DNA of 64,000 nucleotides from Bacteroidota bacterium (GTDB lineage Bacteria > Bacteroidota > Bacteroidia > AKYH767-A > 2013-40CM-41-45). A program made the translations under genes and the position numbers. A model generated the notes under the pieces. It made no database searches and was not told the DNA's origin. It saw only the letters and a list, made by a program, of their open reading frames with translations. The stretch lies in NCBI GenBank assembly GCA_043747595.1, contig JAYTOX010000065.1, positions 4,679 through 68,678 of the forward strand, written 5' to 3'. This document shows, piece by piece, positions 7,167 to 61,528 of this stretch. Positions within the stretch are counted from its first letter, which is position 1. The number at the start of each line of letters is the position of its first letter.

Positions 7167-9944
7167 ATGAAAAGAATAGCACTCATTTTCCTTTATAGCA
7201 TTATTGCTTCAATAGGCTATGCGCAATCTCCAATTAAAATTCATGTTAGTGACCACCAATCAGGAGCTACTTTACCCGGTGTATCGATAGTAGTGAAAGG
7301 CACTACGAACGGGGTTTCATCTGATGCCGATGGTAATGCTGTCATAAAAGCGAATGGAACAGACAGCTTACTAATTCAAATGATTGGTTATATCTCAAAA
7401 ACTGTTGGAATAAATAATCAGACAGAAATAAAGATCGGGCTTTTAACTTCTCCACTCGAATTAGGCGACATTGTTGTTGTTGGTACAAGAACAGCCGGTA
7501 GAATAAAAACAGAAACTCCTGCACCTGTTGACGTCATTTCTGTTTCAGCTGTATCTATTCCAACGGGCCGAACCGATATCACCTCACTTCTGAATTATTC
7601 TGCTCCGTCACTCAACTCTAATAAACAAAGTGGATCAGATGGTGCTGATCATATAGACTTAGCAACACTCAGAGGGTTAGGTCCGGATCAAACATTGGTA
7701 TTAATTAATGGAAAACGAAGACACCAAACAGCTTTTGTAAGTGTGTTTGGTACAAGAGGAAGAGGAAATTCAGGAACGGATTTGAATGCAATTCCGATTT
7801 CTGCCATCGACAGAGTAGAAATTCTTCGTGATGGAGCATCTGCTCAATACGGATCAGATGCTATTGCCGGAGTTATGAATATTATTCTTAAAAAAAATGT
7901 TAAAGAATTTAGTGGCGATCTCAGCTTTGGGGGCTATTCAGATAGTAAATACAATCCTGCATTCAAACCTGAGTTTCAACAGTACCAGCACGAAAATAAA
8001 TTAGATGGACTTACTAGAACTTTAAATCTGAATTATGGAATTCCTCTAGGTAAAAAAGACGGATTCGTCAATTTCTCTTTGAGTGCTTTGAACCAAGAAA
8101 AAACATTTAGACAAATTTCAGATACGTCCAACCTTTTTACAAATGCCGACGCTTTGCCTATTAATATTTACCGGCGTGCAAATGGTGACGGTTCAGTAAA
8201 AGCAATAGGGGCGTTCTATAATCTTGAAACACCAATTGGTAGTGGATCAACCCGCCTTTATTCCTTTGGTGGATATAATTACAGCAAGAGTGATGCATTT
8301 GCATTCAGCAGAAATTTCTCTGCTCGTCCCGAACGTTTCCCTACAGATGTAAATGGAAATCTACTTTTTGTTGACGGAATAATGCATAGAACTCCTGATG
8401 GCGAAGTCTACTTCGACCCACATATTCAAACCAATATAACCGACTTTTCAATTGCTGTTGGGGCTAATGGTGAGGCAGGAAAAGGATGGCTGTGGGATTT
8501 ATCAAATAACATTGGTAAAAATGATTTCCATTTTTATGGTGATAAAACATTTAATGCTTCATTGGGAACAAGCCAAACACATTTTGACGATGGTGGATTT
8601 TCATTTTTACAAAACACTACAAATTTGAATTTCTCCAAACCATTTAAAAATATTGCTCAAGGACTTAATCTTGCCGCAGGAGCAGAATCAAGAATAGAAC
8701 GTTACAATTTATATTCAGGAGAGGAAGCATCGTATAAAAACTACGATACGTCCGGTATAAAAGCATCGGGAGCACAGGGTTTTCCGGGATATCAACCGGC
8801 TGATGCTGTAACAGCAAATCGATCAACTATAGGTGCTTATTTAGATGCAGAACTTGACATAACAAAAAAATGGTTGTTGACTGGTGCAATACGTGCTGAA
8901 AATTATAGCGATTTTGGTTTTACAAGTAACTACAAAATGAGCTCGAGGTATAAGATTACAAATAAATTAAACTTAAGAGGGTCTATTAGTACAGGATTCA
9001 GAGCACCTTCACTTCAACAAATTAATTTTAGCTCCACATTTACAAATGTTCAAGGCGGCCTAGTGGCAGAAGTAAAAATAGCTCCAAATTATAATCCAAT
9101 TACCAAAGCTGCCGGTATTCCTGAACTAAAACAAGAACAATCTGTGAATGCCGGCTTAGGTTTTTCATATACACCAATAAAAAATTTCAATATAACTATT
9201 GATGGCTACATGGTACAAATAAAAGACAGAGTTGTACTTTCAGGCCAATTTGACGCAAGCGATAATACACTTGATCCGGAATTTTTGGCTGCATTAAATA
9301 ATTACCATGCATCCTATGCACAGTTTTTTGTAAACGCAGTAAATACTACTAACAGAGGAATTGATATAGTATTTGATTATAAAAAAATAACAGAAAAACA
9401 TTCTTTCAGAGCTTCTCTTTCGGGCAATTTACAAAAGATGACGATCGATGACATCAATGTGCCCACAAAACTAAACGATACAGAACAACATAGAAAAACT
9501 TTCCTTAGCGACCGAGAGCAGGCTTTTATTTTAGCCTCTGCGCCTTCATCAAAATTTAGTTTGAATTTAGAATATGGAATAAATAAAATTACATTCGGAT
9601 TACGTTTAACATATTTTGGAAGCGTAACTATTTTAGGGTACGGTGAAGACGCATTAGGTATTAATCCTAAAGTTCCGACAGATGCTGATCCCAATGTGTA
9701 TGTAGCCGACAAGTATGTTTACGGAGGAAAAACTGTAACTGACTTATATGTTACTTACAAACTTTGTAAAGCGGCTAAATTGATATTAGGTACAGACAAT
9801 TTATTTGGAGTACATCCTGATTTAGGTGCTGTTGCAACCGCCAAATACTGGGCATATAATAACGAGCCTGCCGGACCATGGGATGCAGTTCAGATGGGAT
9901 CTAACGGCATGAGAATGTATGCTCGATTGGCTCTAAATTTTTAA
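7167..9944 (+). CDS. TonB-dependent outer-membrane receptor
   Basis: Signal peptide, a CarbopepD_reg-like N-terminal domain (IKIHVSD..GVSIVVKG..DADGNAVI), and a plug region (DIVVVGTR). It ends in an aromatic residue (LNF) after 925 aa. Confidence 0.85.
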   Translation: MKRIALIFLYSIIASIGYAQSPIKIHVSDHQSGATLPGVSIVVKGTTNGVSSDADGNAVIKANGTDSLLIQMIGYISKTVGINNQTEIKIGLLTSPLELGDIVVVGTRTAGRIKTETPAPVDVISVSAVSIPTGRTDITSLLNYSAPSLNSNKQSGSDGADHIDLATLRGLGPDQTLVLINGKRRHQTAFVSVFGTRGRGNSGTDLNAIPISAIDRVEILRDGASAQYGSDAIAGVMNIILKKNVKEFSGDLSFGGYSDSKYNPAFKPEFQQYQHENKLDGLTRTLNLNYGIPLGKKDGFVNFSLSALNQEKTFRQISDTSNLFTNADALPINIYRRANGDGSVKAIGAFYNLETPIGSGSTRLYSFGGYNYSKSDAFAFSRNFSARPERFPTDVNGNLLFVDGIMHRTPDGEVYFDPHIQTNITDFSIAVGANGEAGKGWLWDLSNNIGKNDFHFYGDKTFNASLGTSQTHFDDGGFSFLQNTTNLNFSKPFKNIAQGLNLAAGAESRIERYNLYSGEEASYKNYDTSGIKASGAQGFPGYQPADAVTANRSTIGAYLDAELDITKKWLLTGAIRAENYSDFGFTSNYKMSSRYKITNKLNLRGSISTGFRAPSLQQINFSSTFTNVQGGLVAEVKIAPNYNPITKAAGIPELKQEQSVNAGLGFSYTPIKNFNITIDGYMVQIKDRVVLSGQFDASDNTLDPEFLAALNNYHASYAQFFVNAVNTTNRGIDIVFDYKKITEKHSFRASLSGNLQKMTIDDINVPTKLNDTEQHRKTFLSDREQAFILASAPSSKFSLNLEYGINKITFGLRLTYFGSVTILGYGEDALGINPKVPTDADPNVYVADKYVYGGKTVTDLYVTYKLCKAAKLILGTDNLFGVHPDLGAVATAKYWAYNNEPAGPWDAVQMGSNGMRMYARLALNF

Positions 9945-57846: not shown

Positions 57847-57923
57847 GGTTCGGTAGTTCAGTTGGTTAGAATACATGCCTGTCACGCATGGGGTCGCGGG
57901 TTCGAGTCCCGTCCGGACCGCCA
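57847..57923 (+). tRNA. tRNA-Asp (anticodon GTC)
   Basis: 77-nt cloverleaf with a 7-bp acceptor stem, anticodon loop CTGTCAC, T-loop GGTTCGAGTCC and a 3' CCA. It closely resembles bacterial tRNA-Asp. Confidence 0.9.
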
Positions 57924-58489
57924 ACACAAAGATTAAAGCCTTGTAGCAGATGATGTTACGAGGCTTTGTTGTTTTTGGGGGACAGTTTTTTTATTTTTTA
58001 CTGAATAACGAAGGGCAGTTAAACACTCCATAACTTGCCAGTGGAACACCAAGTAGTAGATTTATCGCAATTTCTAATTACTAATTCCGTCAAGCTCCCT
58101 AATTATGCGTTGGTATTCGTGAAGTGAGGTAATACTAATTCCGTCAGAAATAAAGATCACCAATACCAATTTTATTAAGCTCGATTAAATTCAGCTTATC
58201 ATCAGCCATAATTAATTTCTTAATAAGTACAATTTCATTTAGTTTATAACGAATACGGCTAACAGCAATTCGCTTTGCATGTGCGGATATCTGTTTAAAT
58301 TCATCATTGAAACAACCTATGAATTCAATGAAGCCCCATGTATCAAGCATTCTTTTCCGGTCTAAGAGCTTATGAATTGTAATTATATTTTAATTCTTAT
58401 TCAGTTGAATTCTGTCACATACATTTTTAATCTCTGACCAGCTTCAAAAAGAGAATTATTTCATAGATTAGTGGCTTAAACCTTTTAGT

Positions 58490-59080
58490 ATGCTAGTTAA
58501 ATCAAAGAATGTAGAAGGCGAATTAACAATTTTAGTACAGCAATCAATCGGCGAATATATCTACACTTTTGAGGGGATGCTCCAATCTATAAGGAAAACA
58601 GTTCTTGTTATTCTGAAAAAATATGGATTGAAAGATGAAGCTGTTGGATTAATTATAATACATGATTCATCAGCAAAATCTTTACTTGATTATTTCAAAG
58701 CTTTACTGATACATCTAAAAAAAGATCAACTTTCAGATAAGAATACAAAAAACTATATTAGTAAAATATGGAAAGAAATTCAGGAAGCAATGGAATTCCG
58801 AAATGATATTGCACATGCATATTGGTTTACCGGATATGAATATGATCAAGATGGTGCTACTGGCATTGGTATATTTGCTGACAAACACAAAGTAATGAAA
58901 GACGGTTTGAAAAATAGATTTGAATCTTTCGAACAAAAGCATCTAAAGGACATGAAAAAGAAAAGTGAATTAAATCTAAATTTAAAACATAACATTTTAA
59001 ATATCTCAAATAATATATGGATTAACAAACCATTACTTTTCAATTCAGATATTGTAAATAAGAATACTGGTTTTAGGTAA
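58490..59080 (+). CDS. HEPN-like protein, paralog A (conserved R-N-x3-H-x-Y-W)
   Basis: 196 aa. 'EFRNDIAHAYW' contains Rx4H. It shares ~30% identity and an 'HDSS.K.L.DYF' motif with the 60385 ORF. Confidence 0.4.
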   Translation: MLVKSKNVEGELTILVQQSIGEYIYTFEGMLQSIRKTVLVILKKYGLKDEAVGLIIIHDSSAKSLLDYFKALLIHLKKDQLSDKNTKNYISKIWKEIQEAMEFRNDIAHAYWFTGYEYDQDGATGIGIFADKHKVMKDGLKNRFESFEQKHLKDMKKKSELNLNLKHNILNISNNIWINKPLLFNSDIVNKNTGFR

Positions 59081-59112
59081 CCAGCAAATAATAGAACATT
59101 TAAACTTTTAAT

Positions 59113-60081
59113 ATGTCAATTTCATCAATACCAGTTTCAGAAGTTCAGGAAATTCTTGCAGAGCTCGGAAATCTTGAATTACACACTTACCCTAAAGATA
59201 ATGCTCAAAAGTTAATCAATAGATTAATTAGACTAGGTGTAGTGCTCGTGGATTTAAAACCCGGCAAAACCATGATGCGGCTTCGACCAAATAATAATGG
59301 TCAAAGACATAATACAGATGATCAACTTTGGTATCGACCACAAAAATATAATACCACATACCAGCGTGCAAGCACCATCGATGCCACCATGTTTTATGCA
59401 TGTCTTCAAGCCAATACACCTGAAGGCCTGGAGAATAGAACTGAGATTGTGAAAGCTCAACTTGCATGCGCAGTTGAAACTTTTAAATGGTTTAGAGAGA
59501 AACGTTCTTGCTGTTATCAAAAAATTACATATAGCCGTTGGTTAGTTAAAAAACTTATTACTGTAGTAGGCATTGTACATCATCCCAAATTTATTGAAGG
59601 TACACCATATGCAACTGAATTAAATAACGCGCATAAAGATTTTATGTCGAAATATCCAGACATCGAAATTCAGACTAATCTTATTTCACAGTTCTTTAGC
59701 GACCAATTCGGGCGTGATGATGCTGATAGTGATCATGACTATTTGTATTTATTGTCTGCTTTGTACAGTGAAACTATTGTTAAATCAGGATTTCAAGGTG
59801 TGTTGTATCCAAGCGTAAGAGTCGAAGGTAAGACACTAAATATAGCAATCACACCTGATACTGTTCACACTTCATTGGAATTAATAGCAGCAGGCGAAGG
59901 TTCAATTTATAAATATCTTGGCGAAGGTTTTATTGATAATGATTCACAAGCAGAAAATATCGCTAATAAAAAAAATATACCTTATTACGACATAACAGAT
60001 GATCGGTATCATATGGGTCAGGACAAAATGTTGAAGCATTTTGGTCTAAGTTCAATTTCAGAATTATGTGATTGTAAATAA
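59113..60081 (+). CDS. RES-domain protein (putative NAD+-targeting toxin family)
   Basis: 'MRLRPNNNGQRHN' (GxRxN), a downstream Tyr and Glu, and 'GVLYPSVRVEGKTLNIAI' (vPS...N.v.f) occur in RES order. Confidence 0.5.
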   Translation: MSISSIPVSEVQEILAELGNLELHTYPKDNAQKLINRLIRLGVVLVDLKPGKTMMRLRPNNNGQRHNTDDQLWYRPQKYNTTYQRASTIDATMFYACLQANTPEGLENRTEIVKAQLACAVETFKWFREKRSCCYQKITYSRWLVKKLITVVGIVHHPKFIEGTPYATELNNAHKDFMSKYPDIEIQTNLISQFFSDQFGRDDADSDHDYLYLLSALYSETIVKSGFQGVLYPSVRVEGKTLNIAITPDTVHTSLELIAAGEGSIYKYLGEGFIDNDSQAENIANKKNIPYYDITDDRYHMGQDKMLKHFGLSSISELCDCK

Positions 60082-60097
60082 ATTTAAAGAAAGACCA

Positions 60098-60370
60098 ATG
60101 GCAATATGCAGATGTGCAGAGCATGCACCATTAAACCAAAATAAACACACTTATACCCATTTGATTGAACCAATTGGTTATCCAAAAACAGCAGCGATTT
60201 GTGGACATATAATAGATGACAAATCAGACATTCGTTGTGAAGAAATTGGAATGGTATATCTTACCTCATTTGAATTACATAACTTTCAACAAGGTCACAG
60301 AGTTTTTACTCTTGCAACATCAACTATTCGTGTGAAGGTTAAGGATAAAGCACCAATGAAATATATTTGA
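60098..60370 (+). CDS. small Cys-rich protein (possible zinc-binding)
   Basis: About 91 aa, with 'CRC', 'ICGH' and 'RCEE'. It is tightly coupled between the RES and HEPN-like genes. Confidence 0.35.
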   Translation: MAICRCAEHAPLNQNKHTYTHLIEPIGYPKTAAICGHIIDDKSDIRCEEIGMVYLTSFELHNFQQGHRVFTLATSTIRVKVKDKAPMKYI

Positions 60371-60384
60371 TAATAATATTATCT

Positions 60385-60945
60385 ATGGCATCTAATATCA
60401 AAAAAGAAAGAACAATTCTTCCAGTTCCTGAATCAACTTATGATGATAAAGTACTTTCAGAATACTTAGGGCAATTTGTAATTGAGTTTGAAAGGTTAAT
60501 GGATAATCTTCGTACAACAATTTCAACTGTTCTATATAAGGAAGGATTAAAAGAAACTTTCTATAGTGAAATTTTAATGCATGATTCAACAACAAAAAAT
60601 CTTACAGATTACTATTGTGCCACGTTAAAGTTTTATTTGGCCCCATGTATACCTGAATGGCTACCATCAGAAACAGAAAAAAACAAGATAGACAAAAAGG
60701 AAAAGTTAGAAACTGAAAGGGTAATTCACACTTTCATTGAAAAGGTTTATTCCAAATTAGGCGAAATAGGTAAAGTGCGAAACACCTTCCTTCATTCACC
60801 TTGGCAAAGTATGCATTTTAAAAGCGCGGTTAATTTTGTTGCGGAAAGGTTTTCAGTTAATGGAAAAGGCGCTAAGAATAAATATCATAATGAAACAGTA
60901 AGCCCCGAAACCTTCATCAACTTATTAACAACATTAAAATACTAA
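60385..60945 (+). CDS. HEPN-like protein, paralog B
   Basis: 'KVRNTFLHSPW' (Rx4H) at the position aligned with paralog A, plus the 'HDSTTKNLTDYY' motif. The ORF-track TTG start at 60367 was replaced by the ATG at 60385. Confidence 0.4.
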   Translation: MASNIKKERTILPVPESTYDDKVLSEYLGQFVIEFERLMDNLRTTISTVLYKEGLKETFYSEILMHDSTTKNLTDYYCATLKFYLAPCIPEWLPSETEKNKIDKKEKLETERVIHTFIEKVYSKLGEIGKVRNTFLHSPWQSMHFKSAVNFVAERFSVNGKGAKNKYHNETVSPETFINLLTTLKY

Positions 60946-61528
60946 ATCAAGAAATAGAGAATACAGCTGATGTTTTATTTAAGTACAGTTCTGAAGAAAT
61001 ACGGAAAGGTGTATATCCTTTTTCAACTTTACATATTATTGCCGGAATAAATGATCTGAACTTTGATATTGTTGAAATATAATAACAGTTAAAACCGAAA
61101 AGATCAACAGGACCTTTCATATAACCTTTGAACGGTTGTTGATGCGAATACCTTTCCGTTAAGGAGAATGTTACATGGAAAATAGGACACAATTTCAATT
61201 GCGTAACCTGTCAAGCACCATTCCATCTGCACTACCATTTGTAAAGAAGCCCATTACTGATTCCCGAACGGAATGATCACAGTTTGAATCGACAAAGGGT
61301 GGTCAATTTCATCGGTGCTTGCAAACTTATCCAGAACTTATTAAATTATTTGGAACGCCGGTATCAAAGATTCCGGTTCCATATCAACCATTTAGATTTA
61401 CGAAGGTTCACTACTTGTTTGCTGCTGTCATACTTGGACTTGCAGCATATGGTACAATCAGTTTAATAAAAAATAAAACCACTTTAATGCCAATTAAAAT
61501 TAAGGGCAAAGAAGAAAAATGATTTCAG

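Follow-up and report, generated by a model that had tools for sequence, protein, structure and literature searches.

We analyzed a 64,000-nucleotide stretch of a Bacteroidota bacterium genome (GenBank assembly GCA_043747595.1, contig JAYTOX010000065.1, positions 4,679 to 68,678; hereafter the window), in which four plus-strand genes at 58490-60945 encode, in this order, a HEPN-like protein of 196 amino acids (aa) named H1, a RES-like enzyme of 322 aa, a small orphan protein of 90 aa, and H2, a HEPN-like paralog of H1 of 186 aa. Our preferred reading, to which we give a probability of roughly 60%, is that this cluster is an islet of stacked, separately mobile, stand-alone effectors of the abortive-infection (Abi) or toxin type that are probably transcribed together. 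We find it the likeliest explanation because each family occurs elsewhere without the others. The effectors would be inactive until triggered and would then arrest the cell through NAD+ loss and RNA cleavage. The RES-like protein would act as an NAD+ phosphorylase or NADase or, less likely, ADP-ribosylate a target as ParT does, possibly under control in cis through its conserved N- and C-terminal extensions. H1 and H2, which are old paralogs, are predicted to be metal-independent RNases acting as dimers, possibly as an H1/H2 heterodimer. An earlier note on this DNA, made from the sequence alone, had instead proposed a new split HEPN/RES/Cys/HEPN system, a claim that fails, as these genes lack co-conservation.

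The four genes are not co-conserved

RES-like loci were fetched from 22 species-representative genomes, 8 IMG/VR viral contigs, several metagenome contigs, and one plasmid. All except the plasmid (L052) were scanned as six-frame translations with phmmer and with profile hidden Markov models (HMMs) of both families. In an alternative reading, all four products would make up a single abortive-infection module: H1 and H2 would pair into a heterodimeric HEPN RNase that acts jointly with the RES enzyme and the small Cys protein, with the RNase gated, for example, by NAD+ cleavage products or by ADP-ribosylation, or with the H proteins restraining RES. A homolog of the H family or of the 90-aa protein was found in 0 of the 34 other RES-like loci scanned. 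Among all fetched loci, the profile HMMs of both families recovered the four-gene arrangement only in the window and in its identical copy, a public contig of 3.4 kb on which the same four genes are called. All-against-all clustering of the neighbors in 27 RES-like loci revealed no conserved partner family on either side, and the RES homolog nearest to the window protein (76% identity), which stems from the same sequencing project, is flanked on either side by unrelated genes. A gene upstream of this homolog that looked SIR2-like by eye was dropped as such, as neither Pfam nor PADLOC gave support.

The H genes also occur without a RES-like gene. Outside the window, an H gene without a second family copy nearby was observed in six locus groups (L031, L032-34, L035-37, L038-39, L048-49, and L050-51), and a tandem pair was observed in one locus (L030). 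In L050 the gene stands alone between genes looking, by eye, like acpP and glyS; in L048 it follows a membrane protein gene; and in L035-37 it precedes a DUF2971 gene. The four-gene architecture is thus a singleton, the four genes were essentially never seen together in other genomes, and the four-gene layout as such is probably not a system.

Two other locus types bear on this conclusion. On a metagenome contig (L030, 686-2368), two divergent H paralogs, at 1163-1774 and 1793-2368, form a tandem with an 18-bp gap directly behind the gene for a 155-aa Cys-rich protein with several CxxC motifs and a C-terminal membrane helix. H1 has its closest relative in the second of these paralogs, and genes of the H1 subfamily may therefore generally be accompanied by a second paralog. 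In L032 (1151-2701; also found in L033), a plus-strand H2-subfamily gene and a minus-strand methyltransferase-like gene converge so that their stops overlap; the latter is preceded on the same strand by a RES-like C-terminal fragment (family HMM, E = 5.8e-13) that overlaps its start. This is the only other adjacency of H and RES-like genes that was found, and its arrangement differs from that of the window; the two families have therefore met at least twice, in differing arrangements. A JAB/RadC-like fragment, recognized by eye, lies upstream in L032/L033.

It is important to note that several points weigh against an islet of independent effectors. The window genes are packed very tightly on one strand (gaps of 32, 16, and 14 bp), which is compatible with a single operon and possibly with one functional unit, and the divergent locus type of L032/L033 also places an H gene within ~700 bp of a RES-like gene. 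A second H paralog lies in the same gene string at two of the three H1-subfamily loci (the window and L030), which hints at obligate pairing rather than independence. No antitoxin or other restraint was identified for a RES NADase or a HEPN RNase, and the contigs carrying H-family genes are mostly short, so their neighborhoods are under-sampled.

Some of the same features speak for the single module described above: the operon-like packing on the plus strand without an internal terminator-like site, the bracketing of RES by paralogs, the second locus type that joins an H gene, a RES-like gene, and a methyltransferase-like gene, and the Cys-rich protein that precedes the tandem H pair of L030. 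HEPN nucleases such as Csm6, HepT, and Cas13 are moreover generally dimeric. Nevertheless, besides the empty RES-like loci, the unrelated neighbors of the 76% homolog, and the H genes found beside acpP/glyS-like or DUF2971 genes with no RES-like gene, the H gene of L032 is convergent with its RES-like neighbor rather than co-oriented, and the 90-aa protein has no homolog and is dissimilar to the Cys-rich protein of L030. We therefore regard a composite system as unlikely, although it is the first of the alternatives we would consider. We give slightly less credence to a functional coupling of the H pair with an antitoxin-less RES, in which the H1/H2 RNase and an NAD+ phosphorylase would form one abortive-infection module; here the RNase would be controlled by ADP-ribosylation or ADP-ribose 1''-phosphate (ADPR-1''P), or else RES would be inhibited in a new way by the H proteins or by the small Cys protein. 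If such coupling existed, the window would represent a compact form of the association seen rearranged in L032/L033.

A divergent RES-domain enzyme without an Xre partner

The central protein (59113-60081) is a RES-domain enzyme with an ADP-ribosyltransferase (ART) fold. In the search with the Pfam RES family (PF08808; COG5654) it scores 22.0 bits (E = 1.8e-4), just short of the gathering score of 23.2; 15 of the 16 family members match PF08808 at E<=0.01 (best, 3.8e-6) and two homologs carry a precomputed PF08808 hit. The fold is ART-like, with the solved RES toxins closest. These results bear out the RES assignment made in the earlier note, and the landmark strings on which it had drawn, GQRHN and GVLYPSVRVEGKTLNIAI, are present in the protein. 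Sequence and profile searches of the PDB with the RES-like profile returned no relevant entries, and PADLOC-DB 2.0 returned nothing meaningful for this protein.

The RES-like family is rare, with 16 clusters among 5.8 billion proteins. Its invariant columns include R56, R58, R85, Y95, E122, and S234, and N243 is nearly invariant; position R236 is Arg, Lys, or Gln across the family. RES toxins are known to carry an R/Y/N triad (PMC9503650). The spacing of S234-x-R236-x6-N243 is exactly that of S184/R186/N193 in NatT (PMC11535050), and the R85-Y95 pair was mapped to R82/Y93 of NatT and R47/Y58 of MbcT (PMC11535050, PMC6436930), with an R85-to-Y95 spacing of 10 compared to 11 in both toxins. On this mapping, which was deduced from spacing and secondary structure and not from a superposition, R56/R58, R85, Y95, E122, S234-x-R236, and N243 would make up a complete RES active-site set. 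NAD+ phosphorolysis is most likely the chemistry of the enzyme. Compared with RES toxins, members of the family have ~45 extra N-terminal and ~65 extra C-terminal residues, which are conserved and confidently modeled.

The RES toxins of type II toxin-antitoxin systems (MbcT, NatT, ParT, P. putida Res, and VPA0770) are paired with Xre, whereas the window enzyme has neither an Xre or helix-turn-helix (HTH) gene nor a conserved partner; indeed, Pfam and NCBIfam searches for HTH or Xre domains gave no match in H1, the 90-aa protein, H2, or a 68-aa open reading frame (ORF) upstream of the cluster. It further differs from these toxins in its extra termini, its sub-threshold Pfam score, and the near-restriction of its family to Bacteroidota islands and to viral and plasmid contigs. 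Since characterized RES toxins depend on a neighboring antitoxin to plug their active site (PMC6436930, PMC11535050), it could be proposed that the window harbors a non-canonical toxin-antitoxin system in which Xre has been replaced by H1, located upstream at the usual antitoxin position, or by the 90-aa protein, located downstream where an immunity gene would lie. The RES gene is abutted on both sides, and a small variable gene lies immediately 3' of several RES-like homologs (L010, L011, L012, and L025), a pattern typical of polymorphic-toxin immunity. However, the lack of a partner family conserved on either side across the 27 loci, the absence of a close downstream gene in about half of the loci, and the intact catalytic-type motif of H1, which has no HTH, make this proposal quite improbable, as does the prospect that the conserved terminal extensions provide control in cis.

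RES has been listed among NAD+-depleting domains (10.64898/2026.09.04.749371) and discussed as an immune NAD+ effector (PMC9503650; 10.64898/2026.09.04.749371); RES toxin-antitoxin systems had not been implicated in immunity as of 2024, and their physiological role is debated (PMC11535050). As stand-alone effectors, the RES-like enzymes would resemble NAD+-depleting effectors such as TIR and SIR2 in Thoeris and DSR, with the same predicted outcome of NAD+ loss and growth arrest and with many homologs located among defense genes. Unlike those effectors, the window RES has no defined sensor or partner gene, and its role in defense is a conjecture. Those RES toxins that have been characterized are known as members of RES-Xre pairs, and an antitoxin-less lineage offers a test case for a stand-alone immune RES and for the way in which it is silenced.

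The family is almost confined to Bacteroidota islands plus viral and plasmid contigs. Members were found on 8 IMG/VR viral contigs (L040-L047), where the neighbors look, by eye, like terminase, endolysin, and tape-measure genes, and on a 16-kb Bacteroides finegoldii plasmid (NZ_OY725957.1, L052), where RefSeq names the product a hypothetical protein and which was the sole find of a tblastn search against plasmids. The viral contigs would fit a phage-derived moron, in which the RES-like gene ADP-ribosylates a specific host or phage target instead of acting as a suicidal NADase, and in which the neighbors of the window gene are incidental. We hold this to be the least probable of the explanations, as tblastn detected no homolog in 50,697 GenBank phage records, most members reside in chromosomal islands that also hold restriction, Kiwa, or GmrSD-type genes, and the phosphate-coordinating S-x-R of NAD+ phosphorylases is conserved. 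In a Chitinophagaceae metagenome-assembled genome (MAG), a homolog of KwaB of the Kiwa system (L020, 2366-3127; Pfam E = 7.9e-25) adjoins the RES-like gene and is convergent with it. Other neighbors include GmrSD_N, N6/N4 methyltransferase, nSTAND NTPase, and tyrosine integrase genes, together with weak Mrr, NERD, and TIR matches. These settings mark the RES-like genes as cargo of variable or mobile regions.

Genes for DUF2971 proteins turn up repeatedly in the vicinity of RES-like as well as H-family genes: one is the second gene downstream of a RES-like gene, behind one that is weakly TIR-like (L002, 9543-10553), and another is located directly downstream of an H-family gene (L035, 949-1743). 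In L004 (6095-7762, P0015), the RES-like homolog has a 240-aa N-terminal extension that looks, by eye, like a hydrophobic segment leading into a long helical region, and its gene lies directly 3' of that for a Por_Secre_tail protein, which carries a type IX secretion system (T9SS) signal; this hints at a secreted or membrane-anchored variant. In an Epilithonimonas MAG (L022, 7998-8941), the RES-like gene is divided into two ORFs (7998-8474 and 8618-8941), probably reflecting a pseudogene or an assembly frameshift. Finally, three proteins encoded beside RES-like genes contain R-N-x3-H: L025, 3022-3786 (IRNLFVH); L010, 4347-4859 (FRNHFEH); and L040, 4691-5965, on the minus strand (RRNDCAH). They were dropped as additional HEPN partners, as hhalign against the H profile aligns the motif alone (probability <1%); Pfam gave no match for them, and the motif count is not clearly above chance.

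A HEPN-like family and the 90-aa protein

H1 (58490-59080) and H2 (60385-60945) are paralogs, as had been noted from peptide pairs that indeed align in register: BLASTP gives E = 1e-14, with 24% identity over 175 columns. Both proteins share the motif R-N-x3-H-x2-W (R104/H109 in H1, R132/H137 in H2), for which one or two residues before the Trp had been allowed; there are two in each. H1 groups with P0024/P0025 and H2 with P0020-P0023, and because they belong to different subfamilies, the pair is not a recent duplication. The C terminus of H2 is ~30-40 aa shorter than those of its closest relatives, and no degraded C-terminal remnant was found downstream of the gene. A word-indexed search with H1 retrieved only H1 itself, and H-family locus scans, two of Joint Genome Institute (JGI) metagenomes and two of IMG/VR, found no relatives. 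An exhaustive HMMER search with the H1/H2 profile yielded 179 cluster representatives at E<=1e-3, of which 37 also pass E<=1e-10. Most of these proteins are 180-230 aa in length and are mostly single-domain.

In an alignment of 56 family members, G21, E28, R104, N105, and H109 are invariant, and 148 of 150 representatives carry R-[NDHQST]-x3-H, with a polar residue after the Arg; G-x-F-x3-F-E and H-D-S-[ST] are further conserved motifs. HEPN proteins are defined by Rx4-6H with a polar residue after the Arg, an upstream acidic residue, and a location of the motif at a helix end (PMC3710099). The H family has both the polar residue and the upstream acidic residue, the latter being E28 inside the F-E motif, although this Glu lies outside the typical E-x3-[KR] context (PMC3710099). 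Weak but recurring similarities with HEPN models were detected as well: H1 matches a Csx1/Csm6 HEPN region in PADLOC at E = 3.2e-4, H2 matches CARF_HEPN_CSX20 at E = 1.8e-4, family-wide, the PADLOC models CARF_HEPN_CSX20, Csx1, Csm6, CARF_HEPN, and Cas13a are matched at 3e-5 to 3e-3, and 4 of the 56 members match Pfam HEPN_RiboL-PSP (PF18735) weakly (best E = 6.9e-4). It should be noted that a few members also match unrelated PADLOC models, such as Csn2, so the matches to HEPN models are suggestive only. No match exceeded any curated threshold, NCBIfam and PHROGs gave nothing meaningful for the family, and H1 had no match in Pfam or NCBIfam. Sequence and profile searches of the PDB with the H-family profile found no relevant entries; the AlphaFold model of H1 is all-alpha and of low confidence. 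A fold search of BFVD gave weak matches only (TM ~0.3). Taken together, the motif and the recurring weak matches provide good but incomplete support for the HEPN assignment of the outer proteins, and the family is likely HEPN-like, with a predicted fold.

The H family shares R-N-x3-H and the upstream Glu with stand-alone Abi-type HEPN proteins and the wider HEPN superfamily, including RiboL-PSP-HEPN (PF18735; PMC3710099). As in the stand-alone Abi-type proteins, its members are ~200 aa long, all-alpha in a low-confidence model, and often encoded without a second copy nearby; unlike described HEPN families, they have no match at a curated threshold and possess the additional G-x-F-x3-F-E and H-D-S-[ST] motifs, the HEPN fold being a prediction. 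The cluster also recalls HEPN-MNT systems (HepT/MntA) in having a small HEPN-type protein in a tight cluster of two to four genes next to a potentially modifying enzyme. In the window, however, the enzyme in this position is a RES protein with an ART fold, the association lacks conservation, and Pfam found no nucleotidyltransferase (MNT) domain in the four proteins or in the products of the flanking genes. In HEPN/RES-NTD1 proteins, a shared N-terminal domain of ~100 aa is followed by either HEPN or RES as the C-terminal effector (PMC3710099). This family likewise ties HEPN and RES together as conflict toxin modules, whereas the two are separate genes in the window. The earlier note had mentioned this family; Pfam scans found no NTD1 match in the four proteins (E<=10) or in the 16 RES-like and 56 H-family members (E<=0.01).

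The earlier note had recognized no described toxin-antitoxin or defense architecture in the cluster. In PADLOC-DB 2.0, the four proteins fit no defined system and only H1 and H2 gave meaningful matches, weak ones to HEPN domains. The RES-like and H families each represent a new lineage within a known superfamily. The H family lacks a model in Pfam, NCBIfam, and PADLOC and should be given an entry in HEPN/Abi catalogues; together with the antitoxin-less RES lineage, it is worth cataloguing and testing.

The small protein between RES and H2 (60098-60370) has 90 aa when read from the ATG at 60098, and not 91 as first counted. It had been called Cys-rich, which holds only mildly, with four Cys residues at positions 4, 6, 35, and 47. 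A word-indexed search of the 5.8 billion proteins retrieved only the protein itself, and no domain was found in Pfam, PADLOC, or NCBIfam, the Pfam matches being sub-threshold and at chance level. Its status as a gene rests only on its snug fit between its neighbors and on the call on the identical contig.

Locus layout and local features

The ORF list and the sequence confirm the four plus-strand ORFs (196, 322, 90, and 186 aa) and the gaps that had been reported between them. The H2 start was set at the ATG at 60385; the mechanical ORF would encode 192 aa if the TTG at 60367 were taken as the start. The four genes are probably co-transcribed, and no terminator-like site was found on the plus strand inside the cluster. 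The Bacteroidota-type -7 motif TATATTTG occurs at 60362-60369, 16 bp 5' of the H2 start codon, and H2 could carry its own promoter, judging from this motif, which is not enriched window-wide. Indeed, neither a sigma-70 scan nor a search for the Bacteroidota -7 motif TAnnTTTG revealed enrichment in the window.

The somewhat low-GC stretch carrying the cluster is bounded upstream by tRNA-Asp (GTC) at 57847-57923 on the plus strand (ARAGORN; Rfam tRNA, 66.5 bits), which is followed closely by a terminator-like hairpin at 57934-57968; the Rfam scan found no other RNA. The cluster does not immediately follow this tRNA, as had been stated: H1 starts 567 bp downstream, and the 68-aa ORF lies between them on the minus strand (58144-58350; present in the ORF list and called on the identical contig), with no match in Pfam or PADLOC. 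The GC content is 0.29-0.34 over most of the cluster, compared with 0.33-0.42 in the flanks. Neither an integrase nor a repeat of the tRNA 3' end was found in the island to mark its borders.

Among the flanking genes, Pfam identified one for a HAD/ATP-grasp protein, one for a DEDDh exonuclease-BRCT protein, and one for the C-terminal part of a helicase; by these domains, none of them is evidently a defense gene. The idea of a defense-island setting holds for the RES-like relatives, which are often located among defense or mobile-element genes; the Pfam domains of the helicase and exonuclease-BRCT genes of the window are no defense markers. The ~580 bp between H2 and the exonuclease gene (60946-61528) contain only short ORFs of 83 aa (minus strand) and 67 aa (plus strand), neither with matches, and have no Rfam match; this segment could represent a degraded remnant or serve a regulatory role. 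On the other side of the cluster, an exact 14-nt direct repeat, TACTAATTCCGTCA, is present at 58079-58092 and 58133-58146, 54 bp apart, between the terminator of tRNA-Asp and the stop of the 68-aa minus-strand ORF.

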